DNA from: an uncultured Planctomycetales bacterium | GTDB taxonomy: Bacteria > Planctomycetota > Phycisphaerae > UBA1845 > Fen-1342 | Reading direction: 5' to 3' | Assembly (NCBI GenBank): GCA_964465125.1 | Contig: CAYXIO010000010.1 | Location: 9,244-73,243, forward strand | Length of the DNA stretch: 64,000 nt | In this document: in pieces, positions 7,659-63,283 of the stretch | Layout: each line of letters starts with the position of its first letter | How positions within the stretch are numbered: the stretch's first letter is position 1 | Notes under the pieces: generated by a model | The model's database searches: none | Told to the model about the DNA's origin: nothing | Seen by the model: the letters and a program-made list of their open reading frames with translations, nothing else | Program-made: the position numbers and the translations under genes

Positions 7659-7700
7659 GCGCCGCCAACAGAACCCACCACGCGAGTGGTGGGTCGTCAG

Positions 7701-7762
7701 CCCCGCACGGGCGTGCGGGGTTCTGAAAGTCGCCGGCCCCGCACTGGCGTGCGGGGTTCTGA
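7701..7762. repeat. Two tandem copies of a 26-nt hairpin unit (family F)
   Basis: ccccgcacgggcgtgcggggttctga at 7701-7726 and ccccgcactggcgtgcggggttctga at 7737-7762. Each contains ccccgcac/gtgcgggg inverted arms. A partial copy ccccgcactggcg is at 6692-6704. Confidence 0.8.
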
Positions 7763-11097: not shown

Positions 11098-11153
11098 ATT
11101 GGGCGGGCGGGGGAAACGGGTCGAGTGGTCCCGCGTCGGCGCGGCCCGGGAGT

Positions 11154-11247
11154 CAGTTGAAAAAGGGTACAGGCACCGCTGAAAGCCCCACTGGCGCCGC
11201 CGCGAAAGCGTCTTGCCGCGGAGCCAGTCCCCTTTTTCAACGGACTG
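11154..11247 (+). repeat. MITE-like palindromic element, family D, copy 1
   Basis: cagttgaaaaaggg...cccctttttcaacggactg with terminal inverted repeats gttgaaaaaggg. A near-identical reverse-complement copy is at 62334-62427. Confidence 0.85.
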
Positions 11248-11259
11248 TCGGGCCGGTTC

Positions 11260-39431: not shown

Positions 39432-42005
39432 TTAGCCCGCTGGTGTCTTGGTGTTCCGGGCGCTCCGGGTCGCCTGGCGCGTGCCTTTTCGTGCGCGGCA
39501 CAGCGCGATGGTCGAGATCGTCTTCACCCCCGCCAGCAGCAACGCCGTGCTCGCCAGGCCGAACACCGGCACCAGCAACACGCCGCACACCAGCGCCCCC
39601 AGGCACGCCCCCGCGTGGTCGGCCCCGACGATCACGCCCGCCGCGGCCCCCGCCCCCGGCGTCAGCGCCAGTTGGGCGCGACCGGCCAACGCGAACGCCG
39701 CCCCACCCAGCAACCCGGTCAGGACGACCAGCCCCGAGATGGTCACTTCGACGATCGTCAGCGCGGCGGCGGCGGTCTGCAAGCCTGCCAGCCACCGCAG
39801 GATGTACGGCACGGCGAACGCCAGCCCGGCGAGCAGCACGTCAAGCAGCGCAAGCCGCGTGAAGTGGCTGCGTCTTTCACCCCCGGCGCGGGGCACGAGC
39901 GCACAGCCGAGCACCAGCCCGCCCATGAACAACGCCACGATCCACCCGATGCGCTGGTAGACGAAGCCGTAGAGGTTCTGGAACGCGAAGAGCCAGAGGA
40001 TGCTGAGCGCCATCGTCGCAAACCCCGTGCTCGCCACGGAGTACAGCAGTGCGCCGCGGGCCCACCCGGTTGCCGCGCCGTGGCGCAGACGCGGCAGCAC
40101 GAGCGTAAGCAGTGCCACGACGCCGATGCTCAGGGCCACGTCGCGCACGCGCAGCGAACTCAGCCACGCGACCACCTGCGTCCGTCCGGTCGCCGCTTCC
40201 CACAACGCCAGCCGCTGCATCAGCAGCGTCGAACGCCAGTCTGAATGAACGCTCGGTGTGTCCGCGGCGTCGAGTTCCGCGCGACGTGCCGCCACCTTGT
40301 CCGGCGTGAGCCAGTCCGTCGCCCCCGCGAACCAGGCCGGATCGAAAAGCGGGGCCGTGATCGCGCGGCGTCCGTAGCGGGCCGCCAACTCATCCGGGGC
40401 GGTGGTCAGCAACCCCGGCCGCGTTGCGGCGAAGATGTACGCTGGATCGCCCCAACTCACCAGAACTTCGGGAAACGCCGTCCGCAGCGTGGCCCGCAGC
40501 GTGCCCAGGTACCCGCGGGCCGCAGGCGTTAGATTGGTCGGTGTGGCCGCGGCGGTCAGGCAGACGACCGCGTCCGCCGTCAGCACACGGCGCAGCTCCG
40601 CGAAGAATTCCGTCGTGTACAGCCGCGCGCGCAGGGCGGTGGTCGGCTCCGGCAGGCGGGCGAGAACGAGATCGAACTGCGCGTGTTGGGTTTTCACGAA
40701 GTAGCGCGCGTCGGCGTGGTGGACCGTGACGCGCGGGTCGGCAAGCGCGGCACGATCCACTTCCGCCAGGAATGGGGCGATCATCTCAAGCTGCCGCGCG
40801 TCGGTCTCGACGTAATCCACGTGTTCCAGCGGGTGCCGCAGGATTTCCGCCAGCAGCCCTTCCGCCCCGCCGCCGATGAGCAGGACCCGCCGCGGCTGCG
40901 GGTGTTCGCACAGCCAGAAGTGCGCCAGCGGGACGTAGGTGTACGGATCGGGGAAGTCCGCGGCGACGTGTCCGTCGCAGTACAGCGTGTACTGCCCGGC
41001 CCGCCGGCCGACGGCGAGGTTTTGGTACTTCGACTCGGCGGTCGCGACCAGCTCGTAGCCGGGCGCGGTGTGGCGCCAGCGCAGCTCGAGCAGGCGTTGC
41101 TCGATGGTCCGCCCGGCGGCGGCAGCGCAGGCGAAACCCAGCAGCGCGACCGCGACCAAAGTGCGTGCGACGCCGCTTCTTGCCGCTAGCGGCACGCAGG
41201 CCGCCGCCGTCAGCACGCCGCACAGCGCGACGAGCTGGGTGGGCGGAAATCGCTCGACGGCCCAGAAGCTGAACGCCGCCCCGCCGACCAGGCTGCCGAG
41301 CGCTTCGAGGGCGTACACCTGCCCCAGCGCGAGCGCCGCACTCGCGCCCTCGTGGCGGCCCGCACCCCGCGCGGCCGCGGCGGACGCGATCGGCCGCTGT
41401 CCATTGGGCCTTTCGTCGCGTGCGTTGCACAGACTGATAGTCTGTGCTCCACCAGATGCGTCGCGCAGACTGATAGTCTGTGCTCCACCGGATGCGTCGC
41501 ACAGACTGATAGTCTGTGCTCCACTCCGAGGGAACTTGCCCCTTTGAATGGCGCACGCCAACGGAAACGCCACCCCCACGAGCATCCCCACCGGTGTCAC
41601 CAGCACGGCGCCGGCTAACGCGACGCGCGGCAGAGGGAGCAGTTCTCCCGGTCCGACGCCCAGCCAGGCCCGCGCCCCGCGAAACGCACACAACTCGACG
41701 CCGGCGACGACGGGTAGCGCCAGCAAGACCGCGCTCAGCAGGGCCACGGCCTTTCCTTGCACGCGCTCCGCCACCCGGCCGCCGGCGGCGCCGCCCAGCG
41801 CCACCCCCGCCAGCCAGGCACACAGCACCAACCCCCACGCAAACTCGCTACCGTACAGCAGCACGGTTGCCTCGCGCAGCAGCAGCGCTTGCAGCACCAG
41901 CGCTTGAATCCCCCAGACAATGACAACCGCCGCCAGCCACAGACACGCCGCCCGACCGCCGGACTTCGCGTCCGACGGGCTGTAGTCCTCAACCGCGGGC
42001 GGCAT
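39432..42005 (-). CDS. Fused polytopic membrane / spermidine-synthase-like (SpeE-fold) protein
   Basis: N- and C-terminal multi-TM blocks flank VLLIGGGAEGLLAEILRHPLEHVDYVETDARQLE...DPRVTVHHADARYFV...FDLVLARLPEP. It contains an in-frame 3 x 36-bp family B array. Confidence 0.7.
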   Translation of the reverse strand: MPPAVEDYSPSDAKSGGRAACLWLAAVVIVWGIQALVLQALLLREATVLLYGSEFAWGLVLCAWLAGVALGGAAGGRVAERVQGKAVALLSAVLLALPVVAGVELCAFRGARAWLGVGPGELLPLPRVALAGAVLVTPVGMLVGVAFPLACAIQRGKFPRSGAQTISLCDASGGAQTISLRDASGGAQTISLCNARDERPNGQRPIASAAAARGAGRHEGASAALALGQVYALEALGSLVGGAAFSFWAVERFPPTQLVALCGVLTAAACVPLAARSGVARTLVAVALLGFACAAAAGRTIEQRLLELRWRHTAPGYELVATAESKYQNLAVGRRAGQYTLYCDGHVAADFPDPYTYVPLAHFWLCEHPQPRRVLLIGGGAEGLLAEILRHPLEHVDYVETDARQLEMIAPFLAEVDRAALADPRVTVHHADARYFVKTQHAQFDLVLARLPEPTTALRARLYTTEFFAELRRVLTADAVVCLTAAATPTNLTPAARGYLGTLRATLRTAFPEVLVSWGDPAYIFAATRPGLLTTAPDELAARYGRRAITAPLFDPAWFAGATDWLTPDKVAARRAELDAADTPSVHSDWRSTLLMQRLALWEAATGRTQVVAWLSSLRVRDVALSIGVVALLTLVLPRLRHGAATGWARGALLYSVASTGFATMALSILWLFAFQNLYGFVYQRIGWIVALFMGGLVLGCALVPRAGGERRSHFTRLALLDVLLAGLAFAVPYILRWLAGLQTAAAALTIVEVTISGLVVLTGLLGGAAFALAGRAQLALTPGAGAAAGVIVGADHAGACLGALVCGVLLVPVFGLASTALLLAGVKTISTIALCRARKGTRQATRSARNTKTPAG
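41424..41527. repeat. Three tandem 36-bp units of the family B palindrome inside the CDS
   Basis: Units start at 41427, 41463 and 41499 (gc[ag]cagactgatagtctgtgctccac...). They are translated as GAQTISLCDASG / GAQTISLRDASG / GAQTISLCNARD. Confidence 0.9.
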
Positions 42006-47639: not shown

Positions 47640-47649
47640 CGGCGCTCGC

Positions 47650-47715
47650 GGGGAGCATGGGCCTCCGGCCCGTGCGTGGAGCGCGATTCGCACGGGCCAG
47701 AGGCCCATGCTCCCC
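47650..47715. terminator. Long perfect-type hairpin formed by an inverted pair of family A repeats; candidate bidirectional terminator
   Basis: Arms ggggagcatgggcctccggcccgtgcg (47650-47676) and cgcacgggccagaggcccatgctcccc (47689-47715). It lies between the convergent asd and the 47726 gene. There is no U-tract, so function is inferred only from position. Confidence 0.5.
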
Positions 47716-47725
47716 GTGCGTCTGC

Positions 47726-49716: not shown

Positions 49717-51036
49717 ATGCGCTGGACCGGCTGGTTCTCGGGGTCGCTGTGCGTTCTGGCACTCTGCGTCGTCGGCGGGGCGGTTCCTGCGCCCGCGGAC
49801 GAGATTACCGTGAAGAACGACTCGATCGTCGATGGCGGGCAGGCCGTCATCGTCGGCGATTTCGCGGTCGGTGAGCAGGCCGGGGCGCGGCTCACGATGC
49901 CGCAGAACGGCACGCTCGTCGCCGTGCAGGTCTTGTGGCTCGAAGGCACGCCTGGCCACCCGCCGAGCCTCCAGAACGCGATCTACATCTACGACGGCAC
50001 GACGTTCCCCACGCCGGGCGCGGCCTTGGCGACGCTGGAAGGTCCGGTGCTGACGCCGGGGTACTGGAACGAGTGGCGTTACCTCGACGAAGCCCAGACC
50101 ATTCCGATCGACATTCCCGTCGTCGCCGGGCAGAAGGTCACCATCGCGCTCGAATTCGGCGAGCCGACCGACGTCGGCAACGGCGGCCCCAGCGTGGTCC
50201 GCGACGTGAACGGGTGCCAGTCGGGCAAGAACGCCCTGTACGCCATCCCGCCCGGCGCGTGGTACAACTTCTGTATCTACCTGGTCGGCGATCTCGCCAT
50301 CCGCGCCGTGCTCGAAATCCCGGACCCCACCGGGGCGTGCTGCTTCATCAACGGCGGCTGCGGCGTGTACAGCCAAGCCGAGTGTACGCAGCTCGGCGGC
50401 ACGTACCAGGGTAACAACACGGACTGTGACCCGAACCCCTGTCCGCTGCCGAGCGGAGCGTGCTGCATCCCCTCCACACAGGGTTGCATCGATCTCAATC
50501 AGACGAATTGCGCGATCGTCGGCGGAATCTGGGCCGGGGCCGGCACGTCCTGCTCGACGTACATCTGCTTCCCGCGCGGGGCGTGCTGTCTGCCCGACGG
50601 CACCTGCCAGGACGACCGCAGCCCTGAGCAGTGCAGCGCCGCGGGCGGTACGTTCCAGGGCCACCAGTCGCAGTGCGCGAACATCAGTTGTCCGCAGCCG
50701 CAGGGCGCGTGCTGCCTGCCGAACGGGAACTGCATCGTTTTTTCGCAGTCCGATTGCGCGATCGTCGGCGGCACGTGGAAGGGCCTCGACACCGACTGCG
50801 CTGATAACAACAGCAACGGCACCGCCGATGCGTGTGAGCAGGAGACCATCTGCCGCGGCGACTGCAACTGCGACGGCGTGATCGACTTTGACGACATCAA
50901 CCCGTTCGTGGACGCCCTCAGCGGCGGCACGCCATGCAGCGTGGAAAACTGCGACGTGAACGACGACGGCGTCATCGACTTCAACGACATCAACCCGCTG
51001 GTGGATGCGTTGAGCAGCGGGGCGGTGTGTCCGTAA
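49717..51036 (+). CDS. Secreted protein with four GACC Cys-rich repeats and a C-terminal dockerin-like pair
   Basis: AGGAGA precedes the ATG, and a signal peptide is present. There are 4 x GACC[FILP]..G.C......C...GG.[YWF].G....C....C. The C-terminus is CRGDCNCDGVIDFDDINPFVDAL...CDVNDDGVIDFNDINPLVDALSSGAVCP. Confidence 0.8.
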   Translation: MRWTGWFSGSLCVLALCVVGGAVPAPADEITVKNDSIVDGGQAVIVGDFAVGEQAGARLTMPQNGTLVAVQVLWLEGTPGHPPSLQNAIYIYDGTTFPTPGAALATLEGPVLTPGYWNEWRYLDEAQTIPIDIPVVAGQKVTIALEFGEPTDVGNGGPSVVRDVNGCQSGKNALYAIPPGAWYNFCIYLVGDLAIRAVLEIPDPTGACCFINGGCGVYSQAECTQLGGTYQGNNTDCDPNPCPLPSGACCIPSTQGCIDLNQTNCAIVGGIWAGAGTSCSTYICFPRGACCLPDGTCQDDRSPEQCSAAGGTFQGHQSQCANISCPQPQGACCLPNGNCIVFSQSDCAIVGGTWKGLDTDCADNNSNGTADACEQETICRGDCNCDGVIDFDDINPFVDALSGGTPCSVENCDVNDDGVIDFNDINPLVDALSSGAVCP

Positions 51037-51149
51037 CTTGTGCTGGCGTGTCGTTCAGTGGACCCGGCCGTCGCTCGCGAGTAGATTCGCAGCGTGAAAC
51101 CCCGCGTGTACATCACTACACCGCCGATGCTCATGTCGGAGGAGCCGCC

Positions 51150-51323
51150 ATGAAGAAGAAGACTGCACCTCCAGAAGATCCCGTCGTGGCCGAAGTGCGT
51201 GCGATCCGGCGGAAGATCTGGAAGGAGGCCGGTGGGACGTTCGAGGGCCTCCAGCGCTACCTGGACCGCGTGGTTCCAGTCGCCAAGCCGCGCCGCCCCA
51301 AGCGGGTGCGGCCTCGGCCTTGA
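51150..51323 (+). CDS. Small basic protein of unknown function
   Basis: GGAGG lies 6 nt before the ATG. MKKKTAPPEDPVVAEVRAIRRKIWKEAGG... Its stop overlaps the candidate uvrA start. Confidence 0.45.
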   Translation: MKKKTAPPEDPVVAEVRAIRRKIWKEAGGTFEGLQRYLDRVVPVAKPRRPKRVRPRP

Positions 51324-54300
51324 TCCGTGAGCGCCGCGTGCAGGGGAGGCACGGGAGACCGCACGCTCAGGCCGCCCAGGGAGCGCGGCGTACCAACGGC
51401 GCGGTCCCCTGGCTCACCGTGCGCGGGGCCACCCATAACAACCTCAAGCACATCGACGTGCGCTTCCCGCTCGGGCGGTTTGTGGGCGTCACGGGCGTCT
51501 CCGGCTCGGGCAAGAGCTCGCTGGTCAACGACATCCTCTACGCCGCGCTCGCCCGTGAGTTGAACAAGGCCACGACACTTGAACCCGGCCCACACGCCGG
51601 CCTCGACGGCCTCCCGCACCTCGACAAGGTCATCGCGATCGACCAGTCGCCGATCGGCCGCACGCCGCGCAGCAACCCGGCGACGTACATCAAGGTCTTC
51701 GACGAAATCCGCGACCTGTTCGCCGAGCTGCCGGACGCGAAGCTGCGCGGTTACAAGCCGGGGCGGTTCAGCTTCAACGTGGCGACGGCGCGTGGCGGGG
51801 GGCGCTGCGAGGCGTGCGAGGGCAACGGGGCCAACCGCATCGAGATGGACTTCCTGGCGGACGTGTGGGTGACCTGCCCGGTGTGCGAAGGCCGGCGGTT
51901 CAGCCGCGAAACGCTCCAGATGCACTTCAAGGGCCAGTCGATCCAGGACGTGCTCGAAATGGAGGTCGGCGCGGCGCTCGAATTGTTCGAAAACCAGGGC
52001 CGCATTCGCAACATGCTCCAGACGCTGCACGACGTGGGGCTCGACTACATCAAGCTCGGGCAGTCGAGCACGACGCTCTCCGGCGGCGAGGCGCAGCGCA
52101 TCAAGCTGGCCCGCGAGCTGGTCAAGAAGCCGACCGGCCGGACGCTGTACGTCCTGGACGAACCCACCACCGGCCTGCACTTCGCGGACATCCGCAAGCT
52201 GCTGACGGTGCTGCACAGCTTCGTCGACGCCGGCAACACCGTCGTTGTGATCGAACACAACCTCGACGTGCTCAAGACCGCCGATTGGATCATCGATCTC
52301 GGCCCCGAGGGCGGCGAGGCCGGCGGCGAGGTCGTCGCCGCGGGCACGCCTGAGGACGTGGCGGCGTGTGCGGCGTCGTATACCGGGCAGGCGTTGCGGA
52401 GCGTGCTCGGCGCGAAGTCCGATGTCAGAAGTGTGATAGAAGTCAGAAGTCAGAAGTCAGAGGCCCCGGAGCGCGCTGGGCAAGGCGCGACTGGTACTTC
52501 TGACTTCTCACTTCATACTTCTCACTTCGTTTCTGTCGTCGGCGCGCGCCAGCACAATCTGAAAGACCTCACCGTCTCCTTTCCGCGCGACCGGATGACC
52601 GTCTGCACCGGCGTGTCGGGTTCGGGCAAGACCAGCTTCGCGATCGACACCGTTTTCACGGAGGGCTATCGGCGCTACGTCGAGTCGCTGTCCGCGTACG
52701 CCCGCCAGTTCCTCGGGCAGATGGCCAAGCCGGCGGTGGACCACGTCCACGGCCTGTCGCCGGCCATCTGCATCGAGCAGCGGGCCGCGGGCAAGAGCCC
52801 GCGCTCGACAGTCGGCACCGTCACCGAAATCTACGACTACATGCGCGTCTTGTGGGCCCGCATCGGCACGCGCTACTGCCCGCACTGCGACGTGCCCATC
52901 GGCACGCAGACCGCCGATGAAATCGTCGCGCGCGTCATGGCCCTCGACGAGGGCACGCCGATCATCCTGCTCGCCCCTATCACGCTGGGCGACGGCGAAT
53001 CGTACGCGGGGCTGTTCAACCGGCTGAAAGCATCGGGCTACACACGTGTGCGGATCGACGGCGAGATTCGCCTGACGGCCCACGCTGCAACGCTCGATGT
53101 CCGCCGCAAGCACCGCGTCGAAGTGGTCGTCGATCGGACGGTCGTACGCGGCAAGTCGCGCGGCCGGATCGCCGAGAGCATCGAGCACGCGCTCTCGCTC
53201 GGCAATGGCGTGATGACGTTGCTCGTCGAGGCCGTGGAGACGGTTGCGGAAGAGGGGCACGAAGGCACGAAGGCACGAAGGCACGAAGGGGAGCATCGGC
53301 CTCCGGCCGGTGCGGTTGGGGAGCATGGGCCTCCGGCCCGTGCAGATGTGAGCGAGGACGGAGAGCCGGGCCCATCCGTTCCCACCTTCCCACCTTCCCA
53401 CGTGCTCACGACTCCCGCCCGCGAATTCATGTACTCGCAGAAGCTCGTCTGCACCCGCTGCGGCACGAGCTTCGAGGAACTCGGCCCCCACCACTTCAGC
53501 TTCAACAGCCCGCTGGGCTGGTGCGAAACGTGCGAGGGCCTCGGCGTGCAACGCGGGGCGCCCGCCGCCGCCATCATCGCCCGGCCCAATCGCACGCTGT
53601 TCGACGGGGCCATCGCCGGCTGGGCACGCATCGAGCGGCGTTCACCGCTGGGCCGTCTGCTGACGAAACTGTGCGAGCACCTGGGGGTGGGCCCCGAAAC
53701 GCCGCTGCGCGACTGGACCGCGGAGCAACGCCGGACGCTGATGTTCGGCGCGGACGGCGGCACGTGGCTCGACGGCGGCGCGCTGTCCGCGGGCGTCCGC
53801 TTCGGCTGGCGGGGTTTTTTCCCCACGATCGACCACGCCACGCGCACTTCGTGGTCGTTCCGGCACCAACTCCGCCACGTGGTCACCGAGATTCCCTGCG
53901 TGACCTGTCGCGGCGGACGCCTGCGGCCGGACGCGGCGGCGGTGCGGCTCGGCGAGGCGTCGATCGTGAAGGTCTGCGAGCTGCCGCTGGCGCAGGCGGC
54001 GGCGTTCTTCCGCGACCTGAAGCTCGACGCCCGCGCGCGGCGGATCGCCGGCGAGTTGCTCAAGGAGACCCGCGATCGCCTCCAGTTTCTGCTGGACGTG
54101 GGGTTGGACTACCTGACGTTGCACCGCGCCGCGCCGACGCTGTCCGGCGGCGAAGCGCAGCGGATTCGGCTCGCCAGTCAGATCGGCAGCGGGCTGTCCG
54201 GCGTTTTGTACGTGTTGGATGAGCCGACGATCGGCTTGCACCCGCGCGACACGCAACGGCTCGTCGATGCGCTGCTCAAGCTGCGTGACTTGGGGAACAC

Positions 54301-56314
54301 GCTGCTGCTGGTCGAACACGACCGCGACGTGATCCGCCGAGCGGATCGGCTGCTGGACTTCGGTCCCGGCGCGGGGGTCACCGGCGGCCGGATCGTCGCG
54401 CAAGGCGTGCCCGCCGAGTTCGTCGGGGAGCATCGGCCTCCGGCCGGTGTGGCTGTCGGCGAAGCTGAAGAGGCGCCCGAGTCTCTGACGCGCGGCTACC
54501 TGTCCGGTCAGATCGCGATTCCGATCCCGCGGAATCGCCGGCCGGTGGACCACGAAACGACCTGGCTCGTCGTCCGCGGCGCGCGGCAGAACAACCTCAA
54601 GCACATCGATGTGCCCATCCCGCTTGGCCGGTTCGTCTGCATTACCGGCGTTTCCGGCTCCGGCAAGAGTTCACTGGTCAGCGACATCCTCTGGCCGGCC
54701 CTGGCCAACACGTTAAACAACGCGAGCCTGACGGTCGGCGACCACGACGACATCGAAGTCGGCACGCGGTCGAGTGCAGATGGCCCCTTCGTCGCTGCAT
54801 CGCTGCGGCGCTTCTTCGCGCGGCGCGGCGACGCGGCCATCGACAAGGTCATCAACGTCGACCAGTCGCCGATCGGCACCACGCCCACCAGCAACCCGGC
54901 CACCTACACCGGCGTCTTCGACGGCATCCGCGAGCTGTTCGCCCGGCTGCCCGACTCGAAGATGCGCGGCTACAACGCCAACCGCTTCAGCTTCAACCGC
55001 CCCGGCGGGCGCTGCGAACCGTGCGAGGGCTACGGCCAGCGGCGGATCGAGATGCACTTCATGCCCGACGTGTGGGTCGAGTGCGACACCTGTCGCGGGC
55101 GGCGTTACAACCCCGAGACGCTCGCGGTGCGCTTCAAGGGCAAGAACATCGCCGACGTGCTCGACCTACGGGTCAACGAGGCCCTGGAATTGTTCGCGAA
55201 CGTGCCGCGGCTGCGGCGGATGCTCCAGACGCTTGCCGACGTCGGCTTGGATTACGTGCAGCTCGGGCAGCCGGCGCCGACGCTCTCCGGGGGCGAGGCG
55301 CAGCGCGTGAAGCTGGCCGCGGAGTTGGGTCAGCCCGACACCGGCCGCACGTTCTACATTCTCGATGAGCCGACCACGGGGCTGCACTTCGACGACATCC
55401 GCAAGCTGCTGAGCGTGATCCACCGGCTCGTCGATCTGGGCAACTCCGTCCTCGTCGTTGAGCACAACCTCGACGTGCTGAAGTGCGCGGATTGGCTCAT
55501 CGACCTCGGCCCCGAGGCTGGCGACGATGGCGGGTATATCGTCGCCGCGGGCACGCCCGAGCAGATTGCAAATGCAGAATGCAGAAGGAAGAATGCAGAA
55601 GAATCGTCCGCCGCGGATGGGGTTTCTGCATTTTGCATTCTGCCTTCGGCATTTGCTTCACATACGGCCGCAGCGCTGCGGCCGGTACTCGCCGCCGGCC
55701 CGTACGAAGACCGCAAGCCCCACGATCCCGCCGCACACGCCGCCCGCACGCTCGCCGCGGAGAAGGCCGGCTTCGGCGACGTGGGCCGCGAGGTGCGGAT
55801 GCCGTGGCAGGTGGACGGCCGCAAGTGGCACCTTGAGCAGCGCGGCACGCGCGACGACCAGCCGCGGCGGTGGGAGCCGGCGGCGCTCGAACATGTCGTT
55901 GACCTCGTGCAGAAGACCGGGCGCGCGGCACGACCGAACGGTGCGGACAATCTGTTTGCGGCCACGAATTGGAACGAGCGCGCCAGCGTCGAAATCACCG
56001 CGCCGGAGGCGGCGTACTGGTTCCTGCACGCCCTGACTGGCGGCGAGTGGCTGCTGGAGCTGTACTTCCGCACCCCGCCGGGCACGTTCAAGTGGCGGGC
56101 CTTGGACGCCGAACTCGGCCTGAAGACGCTTGACGAGCGGAAGGATCTGGAGACCTACGGCGATTGGGCGCGGGTGGACGTGCGGCCCCGCGTGGACGGC
56201 TGGGAGGCGGTCGTTGTGTACGTCCACGACCGCACCGAGATCGACACACCCGCGTTCCGCAAGTTCATCAAGCAGGCGGTGGCCGCGTATCAAAAAGGGC
56301 TCGGGCTCGTGTGA
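51320..56314 (+). CDS. uvrA: Oversized excinuclease ABC subunit A: extra N-terminal NBD-II-type module + complete UvrA + ~220-aa C-terminal domain
   Basis: Three Walker A sites are present: [27 protein letters not shown] and [13 protein letters not shown]. There are three LSGGEAQR signatures. UvrA-specific motifs include [37 protein letters not shown], zinc modules CEACEG..CPVCEG and CEPCEG..CDTCRG, and a UvrB-binding-type [17 protein letters not shown]. The start is TTG 51320 or GTG 51338. Confidence 0.88.
   Translation: [1664 protein letters not shown]
52415..52529 (+). repeat. Lower-GC hairpin-forming insert (type G) translated in frame in uvrA
   Basis: The left arm is rich in tcagaag units (gtcagaagtgtgatagaagtcagaagtcagaagtcagagg). 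The right arm is gtacttctgacttctcacttcatacttctcacttcg. A GC-rich spacer separates them. Confidence 0.8.
53257..53405 (+). repeat. Composite insert in uvrA: (gcacgaag)x4 + two family A copies + (ccaccttc)x2
   Basis: 8-mers at 53257-53288. Family A copies at 53288-53314 and 53318-53344. ccaccttc units at 53382-53397. Translated as [48 protein letters not shown]. Confidence 0.85.
54425..54450 (+). repeat. Family A repeat copy in the uvrA NBD-I/NBD-II linker
   Basis: ggggagcatcggcctccggccggtgt, translated as GEHRPPAGV. Confidence 0.8.
55568..55656 (+). repeat. Lower-GC hairpin-forming insert (type H) translated in frame in uvrA
   Basis: Left arm gcaaatgcagaatgcagaaggaagaatgcagaag. Right arm tttctgcattttgcattctgccttcggcatttgc. 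Translated as [30 protein letters not shown]. Confidence 0.8.
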
Positions 56315-56326
56315 GGAACTTGCCCC

Positions 56327-56983
56327 ATGCTGGATGCGCTGCCCAAACGCGCGTTTTTCACCTTCGAGCTGCCGATCCAGCACATCGCGCGACCGCCGCG
56401 CATCGACGGCGACGTGAGCAAGTGGGGCCGCAAGTACCTGGTCCCGCCGCTTGTCGCGCTTGAAGACCGCGACCCGTTTGCGGATGTGTATTGGGCGTGG
56501 CACGAGGACGGCTTTTTCGCCGCGTTCGACGTGCCCAACCGCGCCGGCCGGCCGCGCTGCGACGTGTCGCACTGGTGGAAAGGCGACGGCGTCCGCCTGT
56601 GCCTGGACACTCGCGATGCCCGCGACGTGAAACGGGCGACCCGCTTCTGCCATTTCTTCTACGCCCTCCCGCTCGGCGGCGGACCGGACGGCAAGCGACC
56701 GGTGGTCGGCACGCATCGCATGAGCCACGCCAAGGAGCCGCCGCCGCCGGTCGACCTGACGCAGCTCAAGGTCGCGGCGCGCGTCGAACGCGCGGGCTAC
56801 ACGCTTGAACTCGGCCTGCCCGCAGCGTGCCTGAACGGCTGGGATCCGGTCGAGCACGGGCGGATCGGTGTCTTCTACAAGGTCAACGACCTCGTCCGCG
56901 GCGAACAGCACCTGACCGTCAACGACGATCTGGGCTGGAACGCCGACCCCAGCACCTGGGCCACCGGCGTGCTGGTGCGCTAG
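56327..56983 (+). CDS. CBM9/DOMON-like carbohydrate-binding-fold protein (tentative)
   Basis: PRIDGDVSKW...DVYWAWHEDGFFAAFDV...WWKGDGVRLCLDTRD...GYTLELGLP...GRIGVFYKVND pattern. It starts 13 nt after the uvrA stop. No signal peptide. Confidence 0.45.
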   Translation: MLDALPKRAFFTFELPIQHIARPPRIDGDVSKWGRKYLVPPLVALEDRDPFADVYWAWHEDGFFAAFDVPNRAGRPRCDVSHWWKGDGVRLCLDTRDARDVKRATRFCHFFYALPLGGGPDGKRPVVGTHRMSHAKEPPPPVDLTQLKVAARVERAGYTLELGLPAACLNGWDPVEHGRIGVFYKVNDLVRGEQHLTVNDDLGWNADPSTWATGVLVR

Positions 56984-60031: not shown

Positions 60032-60106
60032 GGCCCGGTGCGGCTGGCGCGGCGCGCCCGCGGGAGCGGAAGGGCTCATGGCGCATATCCCAGGATCGCC
60101 GCAGCT

Positions 60107-60225
60107 TGCTGAATCAACGTGCGCGCATGGGCGGCGCCTGTCCGAGCCGCGCGCGCCAGCTCGCGGACAAAGTTGCGACCGCTCGCGCGGTCGGCTCGGA
60201 CCTGCGCCGCCGAATCGCGCACGGT
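60107..60225 (+). repeat. MITE-like 119-nt palindromic element, family C, copy 2
   Basis: gctgaatcaacgtgcgcgcatgg...ccgaatcgcgcacggtg. It has the same length and orientation as 42649-42767, with scattered substitutions. Confidence 0.85.
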
Positions 60226-60294
60226 GATTCAGTTTCTGGCAGCGTTCTTGGCAACCGACCCGAGAGATGCCTTATTTGCGACGACTTACGTTAG

Positions 60295-62333: not shown

Positions 62334-62427
62334 CAGTCCGTTGAAAAAGGGGACTGGCTCCGCGGCAAACCGCTTTCGCGGCAGCGCCAGTGGGGCTTTC
62401 AGCGGGGCCCGTGCCCTTTTTCAACGG
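62334..62427 (-). repeat. MITE-like palindromic element, family D, copy 2 (inverted relative to copy 1)
   Basis: cagtccgttgaaaaaggggactggctccgcgg...gtgccctttttcaacgg. It is the reverse complement of 11154-11247 with few differences. Confidence 0.85.
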
Positions 62428-63058
62428 ACGCTTGTGCCTTCGCCAGCAGGCGCATGGCGAATCGCGCGACGGGGGTCCGCGGGTTGGTCTGTTGCCGGCG
62501 CACAAATGCCAACACCTTGCGCCGGCGACAGACGCTCGGCCCCAGCTTCTCGAGCGCGGCGAGCGTCTGTCCGATGGCCACGTTGCGGCACTCGGGCGTT
62601 TCGTAGGTGGCGCTTTCGACAGCCAGCAACACCGGCAGGATGCGGCGGAGGAGGTCGGGCCGACTGTACGCGATGCAGCCGGCGCCCTGAATCGCGTTCG
62701 CGGCGCTGATCAGATTGCCGCCGCGGATGAAAGCCAGATACGTGTCCAGCAGCGCGTCGATCTTGCGCTGACTGTCCGCCGACGCGAGCGCTGCGATGAT
62801 CCGAAGCGCGTTCCAGCGGACGATCTGGCTATCACTCGCCAGCCCGGCCGCGATGGCGTCGAAGTGCGGGTACACCCGACCGGGGTTCTTGGCGGCGGTC
62901 ACGGACAGGGCTTTGCCGGCCGCAAAACGGGCCGACCCCGACGGTGCCGCCAGCTCCTGCACCGCCGCGGGCACCCGCGCCGGCGCAAGCACCCGCGGCG
63001 CGGGGGGTCGCGGGCGCTTTTGCGGTGACATCTTGCGACGTGAAACCGACCGGACCAT
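62399..63058 (-). CDS. Hypothetical helical-repeat (HEAT/ARM-like) protein
   Basis: Repeated amphipathic helices (IVRWNALRIIAALAS, LLRRILPVLLAVES, AIGQTLAALEKLG). The last ~9 codons lie in family D copy 2. An alternative start is 63031. Confidence 0.4.
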   Translation of the reverse strand: MVRSVSRRKMSPQKRPRPPAPRVLAPARVPAAVQELAAPSGSARFAAGKALSVTAAKNPGRVYPHFDAIAAGLASDSQIVRWNALRIIAALASADSQRKIDALLDTYLAFIRGGNLISAANAIQGAGCIAYSRPDLLRRILPVLLAVESATYETPECRNVAIGQTLAALEKLGPSVCRRRKVLAFVRRQQTNPRTPVARFAMRLLAKAQASVEKGHGPR

Positions 63059-63149: not shown

Positions 63150-63283
63150 AAAAAAGGAAAAAAAGGGGACACTACTAATTCCCGCCGGAAAAAAAGGGGG
63201 GGAAAAAAAGGGGACACTACTAATTCCCGCCGGCTTGCTGAGCACGAAACAAGTTGCGAAGAATCAGTAGTGTCCCCTTTTTG
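63150..63283. repeat. A-rich repeat cluster (family E): two direct 31-nt copies plus one inverted partial copy
   Basis: aaaaaaaggggacactactaattcccgccgg at 63158-63188 and 63203-63233. Inverted agtagtgtccccttttt at 63266-63282. It shares the aaaaaggggac end motif with family D. Confidence 0.85.

Follow-up and report, generated by a model that had tools for sequence, protein, structure and literature searches.

Palindromic repeats are known in several forms to lie in frame within bacterial genes, and they are the background for the element described here: a quasi-palindromic insert in the uvrA gene of an uncultured Planctomycetales bacterium, located in a stretch of 64,000 nucleotides (nt) that is called the window below (GenBank assembly GCA_964465125.1, contig CAYXIO010000010.1, positions 9,244 to 73,243). 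The insert is probably a selfish or neutral palindromic repeat of a dispersed type with heptamer arms, tolerated in a permissive tail loop of the protein and palindromic at the DNA level.

Intragenic repetitive extragenic palindromes (REPs) are concentrated in genes of replication and repair (Di Nocera, De Gregorio and Rocco 2013, BMC Genomics 14:522, PMC3733652). The uvrA gene of Thioalkalivibrio contains two REP dimers, and Opitutus terrae, which belongs to the Planctomycetes–Verrucomicrobia–Chlamydiae (PVC) superphylum, has dual inserts in each of its two uvrA genes; such inserts encode 20-30 residues that are argued to sit in linkers or loops (PMC3733652). Rickettsia palindromic elements (RPEs) are palindromic selfish DNA that is inserted in frame into functional genes and translated, the insertions being regarded as compatible with the fold of the host protein because of their surface position (PMC10969869, PMC3733652). 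Heptamer repeats, such as GGGAATC in Xanthomonas, GGGGA(C/T)T in Nostoc and the short tandemly repeated repetitive (STRR) sequences of cyanobacteria, are mostly intergenic and vary in length and sequence between close relatives, and some occur as inverted pairs that can form stem-loops (Rehm et al. 2015, PMC4692102). In-frame palindromes in uvrA have thus been reported before, without an explanation of why repair genes attract them.

Comparison of the insert with described repeats

The insert consists of the following parts.

55568-55657, plus strand: quasi-palindromic insert, 90 nt or 30 codons, about 25 codons more than the ancestral linker (from folds, empty-site orthologues, codon adaptation and the predicted local distance difference test, pLDDT)
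55561-55600, no strand assigned: 5' arm, degenerate tandem heptamer GCAGAAT, 5.9 copies (from Tandem Repeats Finder, TRF, and inverted repeats)
55602-55622, no strand assigned: GC-rich spacer or loop with an inner 7-bp stem formed by 55604-55610 and 55614-55620 (from the minimum free energy, MFE, structure)
55624-55653, no strand assigned: 3' arm, tandem heptamer TTCTGCA, 4.3 copies, reverse complement of the 5' unit (from TRF and repeat search)

The likeness to intragenic REPs is that normally extragenic palindromes occur in frame within uvrA, often two per gene, and the uvrA gene of the window itself carries three copies of an otherwise intergenic REP-like 21-mer, GGGGAGCATSGGCCTCCGGCC. The insert, however, is of another make. 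The region 55560-55665 contains no GTAG, and its one CGTC (55605-55608) lies in the spacer beside the inner stem and not at the foot of the hairpin. A REP unit measures 20-40 bp, with a stem of 5-13 bp and a short loop, whereas the insert is about 90 nt long with arms of 34-44 nt. These arms are tandem heptamers of variable copy number, and related genomes have different unit types at the same codon position.

With RPEs the insert shares that it is an in-frame palindrome in an otherwise intact conserved gene and is tolerated by the protein. RPEs form families of about 100-150 bp that are specific to Rickettsia, with its A/T-rich genomes; each family has a conserved peptide, and none consists of tandem heptamers. 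We know of no description of recurrent replacement at one site for RPEs. This picture of the elements is said to be that of Ogata et al. 2000. Judged by host phylum, GC content and heptamer architecture, membership of the insert in the RPE family is implausible.

As in heptameric simple sequence repeats (SSRs), 7-nt units stand head to tail in at least three copies (5.9 and 4.3 in the two arms). The unit of the insert is the A/T-rich GCAGAAT/GAATGCA, which differs from GGGAATC, GGGGA(C/T)T and the STRR1-3 units; the described units are G-rich and prone to G-quadruplexes. The host phylum is also different, and the insert is an in-frame coding pair of arrays that forms a long hairpin. Transposable elements of the miniature inverted-repeat type (MITEs) are small, non-coding and non-autonomous, possess terminal inverted repeats and can make in-frame fusions; the insert, about 90 nt long in total and with terminal inverted repeats of 34-44 nt, is within their size range of 70-300 bp. 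An assignment as MITE was rejected, as the insert lacks a target-site duplication and defined termini and no parent insertion sequence could be identified. Template-switch mutagenesis at quasi-palindromes, reportedly studied by Ripley and by Lovett and co-workers, is said to make imperfect inverted repeats more perfect. It would explain covariation of the arms without selection at the RNA level, but it is a mutational process rather than an element family and explains neither the arrival of the repeat nor its swapping.

The insert works like an RPE or an intragenic REP without belonging to either family. As far as the literature was searched, novelty lies in the heptamer-armed architecture, in its fixed polarity and in the turnover at one site, while in-frame palindromes in uvrA are a known principle. 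The hairpin is tied to a widespread and apparently undescribed type of heptamer-armed palindrome, which makes it possible to ask, in testable form, how such palindromes arise and stay palindromic, and whether the preference for uvrA reflects tolerance, targeting or selection.

Structure and position of the insert

Folded as RNA, the 106 nt of 55560-55665 form one long interrupted hairpin of -49 kcal/mol, compared with a mean of -28.2 for dinucleotide shuffles (z -6.23, none of 200 shuffles being as good). Folds of single-stranded DNA gave z -5.5 for the plus strand and -4.5 for the minus strand. Inverted-repeat search delimited the arms at either 34 nt, with 76% complementarity, or 44 nt, with 77%, and the TRF match levels of 78-79% show that the arrays are degenerate. 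An earlier sequence-only reading of the window had described 55568-55656 as two near-complementary arms around a 22-nt spacer. The same letters were read here and the quoted arms do pair, with 29 of the 34 bases of each paired in the MFE fold, but the spacer measures 21 nt (55602-55622). The lower GC content that had been noticed is real (0.49-0.56 for the insert as compared to about 0.68-0.70 in the flanks). A scan of 51000-56600 against Rfam returned as its sole hit a miRNA precursor model (E 0.53, 23 bits against a gathering threshold of 67). A function as terminator or as internal promoter for the C-terminal domain was rejected; the region is without a sigma-70-like site and has just two trivial 5-bp stems.

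The host open reading frame (ORF) encodes UvrA, matching the NCBIfam equivalog NF001503 at 1754 bits (cut-off 1147) and a second UvrA equivalog, TIGR00630, at 1696 bits (cut-off 730). Pfam UvrA_inter (1e-30) and UvrA_DNA-bind (1e-7) were also found, and solved UvrA chains match the protein at about 1e-86. The protein is laid out as an extra N-terminal module resembling nucleotide-binding domain II (NBD-II), a complete UvrA, and a C-terminal extension of about 215 residues. Within this ORF of 1664 residues the insert is in frame, and its 30-residue translation comes directly after the conserved end of the ABC fold, following GTPEQI and preceding the conserved motif SHTAxxLxPVL. The alignment to solved UvrA ends at GTPEQIAN, near residue 960 of the chains from M. 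tuberculosis, which have 974-993 residues in their deposited form, and the position of the insert corresponds to the last 15-30 residues or so of the solved chains. Because it stands between GTPEQI and the tail motif, the insert falls within the loop of the canonical C-terminal tail, immediately upstream of the extra domain. The proposal of an in-frame, repeat-derived insert after NBD-II is thus confirmed; its placement between NBD-II and the C-terminal domain needs adjustment, the insert being inside the UvrA tail and not exactly at the start of the extra domain. On the best explanation of these positions, the last strand of NBD-II and the conserved C-terminal tail are joined by a short surface linker, and the insert lies in it.

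Among all 30-codon windows of uvrA, codon adaptation is lowest in the insert (0.23, the median being 0.74; rank 1 of 1634), and three of the four repeat segments of the gene coincide with its three deepest troughs. In an AlphaFold2 model of residues 1350-1664 the pLDDT is 44-61 for the insert and 93-98 for the C-terminal domain. The encoded peptide of about 30 residues is predicted to be a disordered loop, and it appears to have no function at the protein level. On inspection, all six frames of GAATGCA are free of stop codons, which makes the unit compatible with a coding region; the length of the insert is divisible by three. In the hairpin at 52414-52528 of the same gene, the TGA-containing unit is mutated at each place where TGA would be in frame, and in one orthologue (L003, see below) the array ends before AAT TAA would enter the frame. 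The open frame across the inserts is kept by selection. For genome annotation this means that ECRMQNAE...SAFCILHSAF, QSKIQNPKSK and TKARRHEG in planctomycete proteins are translated repeats and not domains.

Empty, filled, decayed and swapped linkers

A scan of species-representative genomes yielded 80 loci (numbered with an L below), all of them consensus sequences of metagenome-assembled genomes (MAGs). The best of these is 80% identical, so the window's own organism is outside the 80 loci. In the protein alignment the stretch from GTPE to SHT is hypervariable, ranging from 7 to about 60 residues, and its sequence varies as well; conservation of the segment at the protein level in unrelated lineages, which would have spoken against a repeat origin, is thus not what is seen. 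The linker is 7-8 residues long (QIAALPQ, EVARAAG) in 33 of about 80 Planctomycetota loci, including every locus of the outgroup clade. With 32 residues in the window against 7, the net gain is 25 codons, and since 33 loci have the 7-residue linker, the segment is an insertion of about 25 codons relative to that ancestral state. The old linker can still be recognised in the window from its opening codons CAG ATT GCA and its closing codon GCT.

Hairpins at orthologous sites were found by TRF and folding; a stricter detector of array pairs missed degenerate ones, including 55568-55657 itself. Cleaner GAATGCA hairpins occupy the insert site in L002, a Phycisphaerae MAG with 62-66% protein identity, and in L046 (z -6.2 and -5.6). 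The site holds hairpins of GAATTAA/GAATTGA (unit GAATTRA) in L003 and L006 (z -8.7 and -6.5), a GAGTAGC-type hairpin in L016 (z -4.1) and a degenerate one in L005 (z -4.0). Decaying hairpins with z -0.7 to -2.8 are seen in L007, L009, L025, L047 and L054, and only one arm is present in L004 and L011. In L001, the closest relative, whose protein is 84-91% identical, the same codon is occupied by a hairpin of an unrelated type, (TTGGATT)n...(AATCCAA)n (z -6.8). The orthologous inserts have a GC content of 0.48-0.54 against 0.65-0.71 in the genome flanks, and in most of them GAAT repeats each 7 nt. Homology is seen among their first codons (E-x-I-A-N-[AS]-E-[CL]-R), while the inserts encode unrelated peptides. 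The linkers are in frame in all of the approximately 80 orthologues examined. At one and the same codon position, these sites range from empty and filled to decayed and swapped, with arms that covary. As a separate observation, the open frame around the linker of L009 (8582-10723) comprises only 714 codons, uvrA being interrupted upstream by a frameshift, by decay to a pseudogene or by an assembly error.

Covariation and history of the arms

Covariation was measured in an alignment of nine orthologous hairpins, a small sample, with a consensus helix of 24 pairs. Of the helix cells 88% are paired, compared to 73.7% in column shuffles, with none of 500 shuffles reaching the observed value; controls with a slid register gave 34-44%. 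Pairs changed on both sides number 13, against 7.5 expected (0 of 500). A selected RNA helix tolerates G.U far better than A.C, whereas random transitions in a DNA palindrome give equal numbers of both. In the nine hairpins there are 10 G.U and 9 A.C cells. Because these numbers are about equal, the palindromy is read as a property of the DNA and not as a selected RNA helix; it would be maintained at the DNA level and not by selection on mRNA structure.

The history of the site was followed in a neighbour-joining tree of the flanking protein (265 columns, without support values). Taxa with a hairpin stand beside taxa with a 7-residue linker (L046 with L049, L002 with L039, L011 with L018), and within very close pairs (L004 with L006, L001 with the window) the cargo differs. 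Identities to the window at third codon positions of the flanks and in the arms are as follows.

L001: flank 0.67, arm 0.31
L003 and L006: flank 0.61-0.64, arm 0.53-0.67
L002 and L046: flank 0.49-0.55, arm 0.72-0.81

Arm identity to the window falls as host relatedness rises, with values that are inflated by the low complexity of the arms. Simple vertical inheritance was rejected on the basis of the tree and of this inverse relation. Either elements from a shared pool entered the site again and again, or an old element was repeatedly lost with precision and converted. We infer neutrality of the insert and recurrent gain or replacement.

A dispersed family of heptamer palindromes

The 21-mer (GAATGCA)3 occurs in at least 120 metagenome contigs with GC contents of 0.38-0.70. 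Among the matches listed, 20 are clean hairpins, and all 20 read 5'-(GAATGCA)n...(TGCATTC)n-3', none having the opposite arrangement, which is a different molecule. Only 2 of these 20 listed hairpins are deep in long ORFs, and the family is mostly outside genes. Long ORFs that run across metagenome hairpins were rejected because their translations look spurious, being Arg-rich and out of frame; one hairpin stands just upstream of a real gene. The idea that uvrA is the general home of the family was also dropped, since none of the 120 metagenome contigs listed carries the repeat in a UvrA-like gene. Among the orthologous loci, L039 has a GAATGCA hairpin at another uvrA linker and L054 has an array outside uvrA. 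Inner GAATTGAGAA units are present in many metagenome copies, as in L003 and L006. The flanks of 128 metagenome arrays decay through nnnGAAT units and have no conserved terminal sequence. In the metagenome loci L083-L202, GAATGCA arrays often run directly into other heptamers, such as ten copies of GAATGAT (L100), CCAAATT (L095) and CAACCCT (L119).

The density of arrays of period 7 or 8 with a unit GC content below 0.8 is 0.268 per kb within uvrA, compared with 0.064 outside it (window and 57 loci; p 1.6e-13 if the arrays are independent). This is only suggestive of an enrichment in uvrA, which is clumped; a strong claim of enrichment was dropped in view of the per-locus sign test given below.

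Possible origins of the insert

In the mechanism that we consider probable, a copy of a dispersed, normally extragenic palindrome, composed of inverted A/T-rich heptamer arms with GAAT each 7 nt, would have landed in the UvrA linker. The reading frame would have been kept because the unit is free of stops, the length is a multiple of three and the loop is disordered. By analogy, the insert may be tolerated in the way that Rickettsia RPEs and intragenic REPs are. The arms could be kept alike by arm-to-arm copying, through template switching at quasi-palindromes together with 7-nt slippage, or alternatively by replacement from other copies of the family. The linker would be a hot spot at which heptamer hairpins of several unit types were gained, lost and swapped repeatedly in the Phycisphaerae clade.

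Several observations weigh against this mechanism. There is no target-site duplication: the flanks GAGCAGATT (5') and TTCACATACGG (3') share no direct repeat, and none is seen in comparison with empty sites. The element has no sharp termini, and the outward fading of metagenome arrays through degenerate nnnGAAT units is what growth of a microsatellite in situ would give. The 64-kb window contains no second copy of GAATGCA, and dispersal within the host genome is thus not shown. No transposase was identified, the ORFs of the window not having been scanned for Y1 transposases. The per-locus sign test of the array excess in uvrA is not significant (14 against 9, p 0.40; 32 loci with full flanks). 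The comparison of arms with hosts uses identities raised by low complexity and a tree of 265 columns without support values, and the codon-homologous 5' ends of several orthologous inserts fit a single old insertion.

There is a minor but real chance that the insert arose locally, from a seed in the linker that grew by 7-nt replication slippage, with the inverted copy made by fold-back or template switching and the arms kept by quasi-palindrome correction; heptamers would then recur elsewhere because slippage favours 7-nt A/T-rich units. The gradual decay of the array edges and the missing target-site duplication fit such an origin, as do the outermost stem GCA...GC(T), which re-uses Ala codons of the ancestral linker, and the solo or one-armed versions in L004 and L011. 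Heptameric SSRs are moreover over-represented in bacteria, which has been ascribed to polymerase slippage, and inverted pairs occur in Xanthomonas (PMC4692102). What local growth does not account for is the identical unit and polarity (20 to 0) in at least 120 unrelated contigs, or the inner GAATTGAGAA units that metagenome copies have in common with L003 and L006; near-identical hosts with unrelated units, furthermore, require wholesale replacement and not drift. We regard as unlikely a single ancient insertion at the base of the Phycisphaerae clade, inherited vertically, with compensatory substitutions under structural selection and precise losses in several lineages. It would need at least seven precise reversions to exactly 7 residues, arm similarity is inverse to host relatedness, the closest relative L001 has an unrelated unit, and there is no preference for G.U over A.C. 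The 5' and 3' ends are nevertheless codon-homologous across at least nine orthologues, covariation of the arms is strong, and the order of variant units GAATGCA, GAAsGAA, GAATGCA is common to the window and L046. A further option, to which we attach little probability, is that the two linkers after the NBD-II-type modules of planctomycete UvrA are dedicated landing sites, where GAAT-periodic palindromes are inserted, excised and exchanged by an undescribed, hairpin-targeted mechanism. A candidate route would be extension of both 3' ends of a break by templated 7-nt repeats, followed by joining. If true, this route would explain why the polarity is fixed, why the GC-rich spacers vary and why target-site duplications are absent, and the concentration in uvrA would reflect an interaction of the repeat with nucleotide excision repair and not mere tolerance.

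Functional roles of the hairpin can be considered as well. As an mRNA element, the hairpin and its rare codons could slow the ribosome and thereby let the three nucleotide-binding modules, which are near-identical, fold singly, or it could act in mRNA stability or processing. Two hairpins indeed occur just after NBD-II-type modules (before the tail motif in the second module, after it in the first), the insert has the lowest codon adaptation in uvrA, and hairpins recur at both linkers in several lineages. Such a role is improbable all the same: 33 orthologues of the same three-module architecture do without the insert, the hairpins of L007, L009, L047 and L054 are decayed (z -0.7 to -2.3), there is no wobble bias, no Rfam match and no terminator-like tail, and the hairpin family is mostly extragenic. 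It is very improbable that the array is a phase-variable contingency switch, in which a change by one 7-nt unit shifts the frame and turns off the tail and the C-terminal domain (or most of UvrA for 52414-52528), giving reversible mutator subpopulations. In favour of a switch, the array is inside an ORF and its 7-nt unit is not divisible by three, and it has been speculated that repair genes tagged by REPs foster mutators (Di Nocera et al., PMC3733652). Against a switch, all of the approximately 80 orthologous linkers examined are in frame, in consensus assemblies where minority variants are invisible; the arrays of the window are degenerate (78-79% matches), which lowers slippage, and the alternative frames run for 88-155 codons without a designed early stop. 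Library artefacts can produce palindromes, but a chimeric join or fold-back read has next to no probability here, given that the reading frame is preserved and that independent assemblies, which come from many studies, have homologous hairpins at this codon position.

Other repeats in uvrA and in the window

Further repeats of the gene and its surroundings are listed below.

52414-52528, plus strand: hairpin of (AGAAGTC)n...(GACTTCT)n, in frame, located in the linker that follows the NBD-II-like module at the N-terminus (from TRF and inverted repeats, z -4.8)
53256-53401, plus strand: in-frame composite of (GGCACGAA) in 4.2 copies, two direct copies of the REP-like 21-mer GGGGAGCATSGGCCTCCGGCC and (TTCCCACC) in 2.9 copies (a codon-adaptation trough)
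54425-54445, plus strand: third in-frame copy of the REP-like 21-mer GGGGAGCATSGGCCTCCGGCC (from copy search)
47649-47716, no strand assigned: inverted dimer of the 21-mer GGGGAGCATSGGCCTCCGGCC between convergent ORFs

The sequence-only reading had counted four repeat-derived segments in uvrA. All four exist, but not all are hairpins, 54425-54445 being a single REP-like unit. In orthologues, the linker after the N-terminal module carries hairpins in L007 (z -6.4), L026 (-7.7), L020 (-7.6), L072 (-5.1) and L070 (-3.9). The 21-mer GGGGAGCATSGGCCTCCGGCC has nine copies in the window (14135, 25930, 31572, 47650, 47695, 53288, 53318, 54425 and 57860) against 0.02 expected, and the three in-frame copies in uvrA encode GEHRPPAG or GEHGPPAR. 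Since its inverted dimer lies between convergent ORFs, this family is taken to be normally extragenic in the host genome and to behave like a REP.

Very long in-frame arrays are present in the uvrA genes of other MAGs: 13 copies of CCCCAAT in L023 (6639-6730), 20 copies of (AGCGACGA) in L052 (5866-6020) and 13 copies of GCCGAAG in L046 (8020-8109). CCCCAAT is the unit of cyanobacterial STRR1. Among the orthologues L003-L082, units of 8 nt recur at differing positions, namely GAAGGCAC/GGCACGAA (TKARRHEG), GGGAACGT/CGTTCCCA (GTWERG), AGGGACAA and GAAACGTC, which suggests a limited vocabulary of repeat units in the host phylum.

Outside uvrA, a second inverted-repeat family with arms of 45-55 nt containing GTCCGTTGAAAAAGGGGAC occurs at 11142-11255 and 62336-62429, in opposite orientation and about 51 kb apart, and a related AAAAAGGGGAC...GTCCCCTTTTT hairpin is located at 63205-63282. 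The largest inverted repeat of the window is at 60090-60251, with 71-nt arms that are 75% complementary and 20 nt apart. Tandem 36-nt repeats are found at 41421-41524 (2.9 copies) and 7693-7762 (1.9 copies); the units each hold a perfect short palindrome, GCACAGACTGATAGTCTGTGC in one array and CCCCGCACGGGCGTGCGGGG in the other, and look like operator or terminator arrays.

The host gene and its C-terminal domain

The gene and the parts of it that border the insert are the following.

51320-56314, plus strand: host gene uvrA of PVC type, ORF of 1664 codons (from the ORF list, translation, NCBIfam and Pfam)
55658-55690, plus strand: conserved UvrA C-terminal tail motif of 11 residues, directly 3' of the insert (from invariant S and T alignment columns)
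55799-56311, plus strand: C-terminal extension domain, well folded and specific to Planctomycetota UvrA, given for context and not a repeat (pLDDT 93-98, more than 100 homologues)

The listed TTG start of the ORF is mechanical, and the frame stays open upstream to 51098. The gene had also been called essential in the sequence-only reading, a label that is not established; uvrA is dispensable in model bacteria. Direct repeats inside the gene link 51408-52354, in the extra module, with 54561-55561, in the regular NBD-II (72-79% identical DNA), and the tail motif that follows the insert also stands after the first NBD-II-like module. UvrA with its extra N-terminal module (51320-52400) partially matches PRK00635, a model of the 1809-residue Chlamydia-type UvrA, at 916 bits, below the cut-off of 3054. 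The long architecture with this module is common to about 40 full-length orthologues of 1600-1800 residues.

The C-terminal extension had no match in Pfam or NCBIfam, and a fold search of the PDB gave nothing significant except a UvrA ABC fragment. It is kept in more than 100 homologues, and all homologues of the C-terminal region are UvrA proteins of Planctomycetota (Phycisphaerae, Gemmataceae and Pirellulales). A motif MPWQxDGRxWH and a second motif of 13 residues are conserved in the extension across Planctomycetota, and more distant UvrA orthologues appear to carry a second copy of the domain (...MPWKVLGQKWH...).

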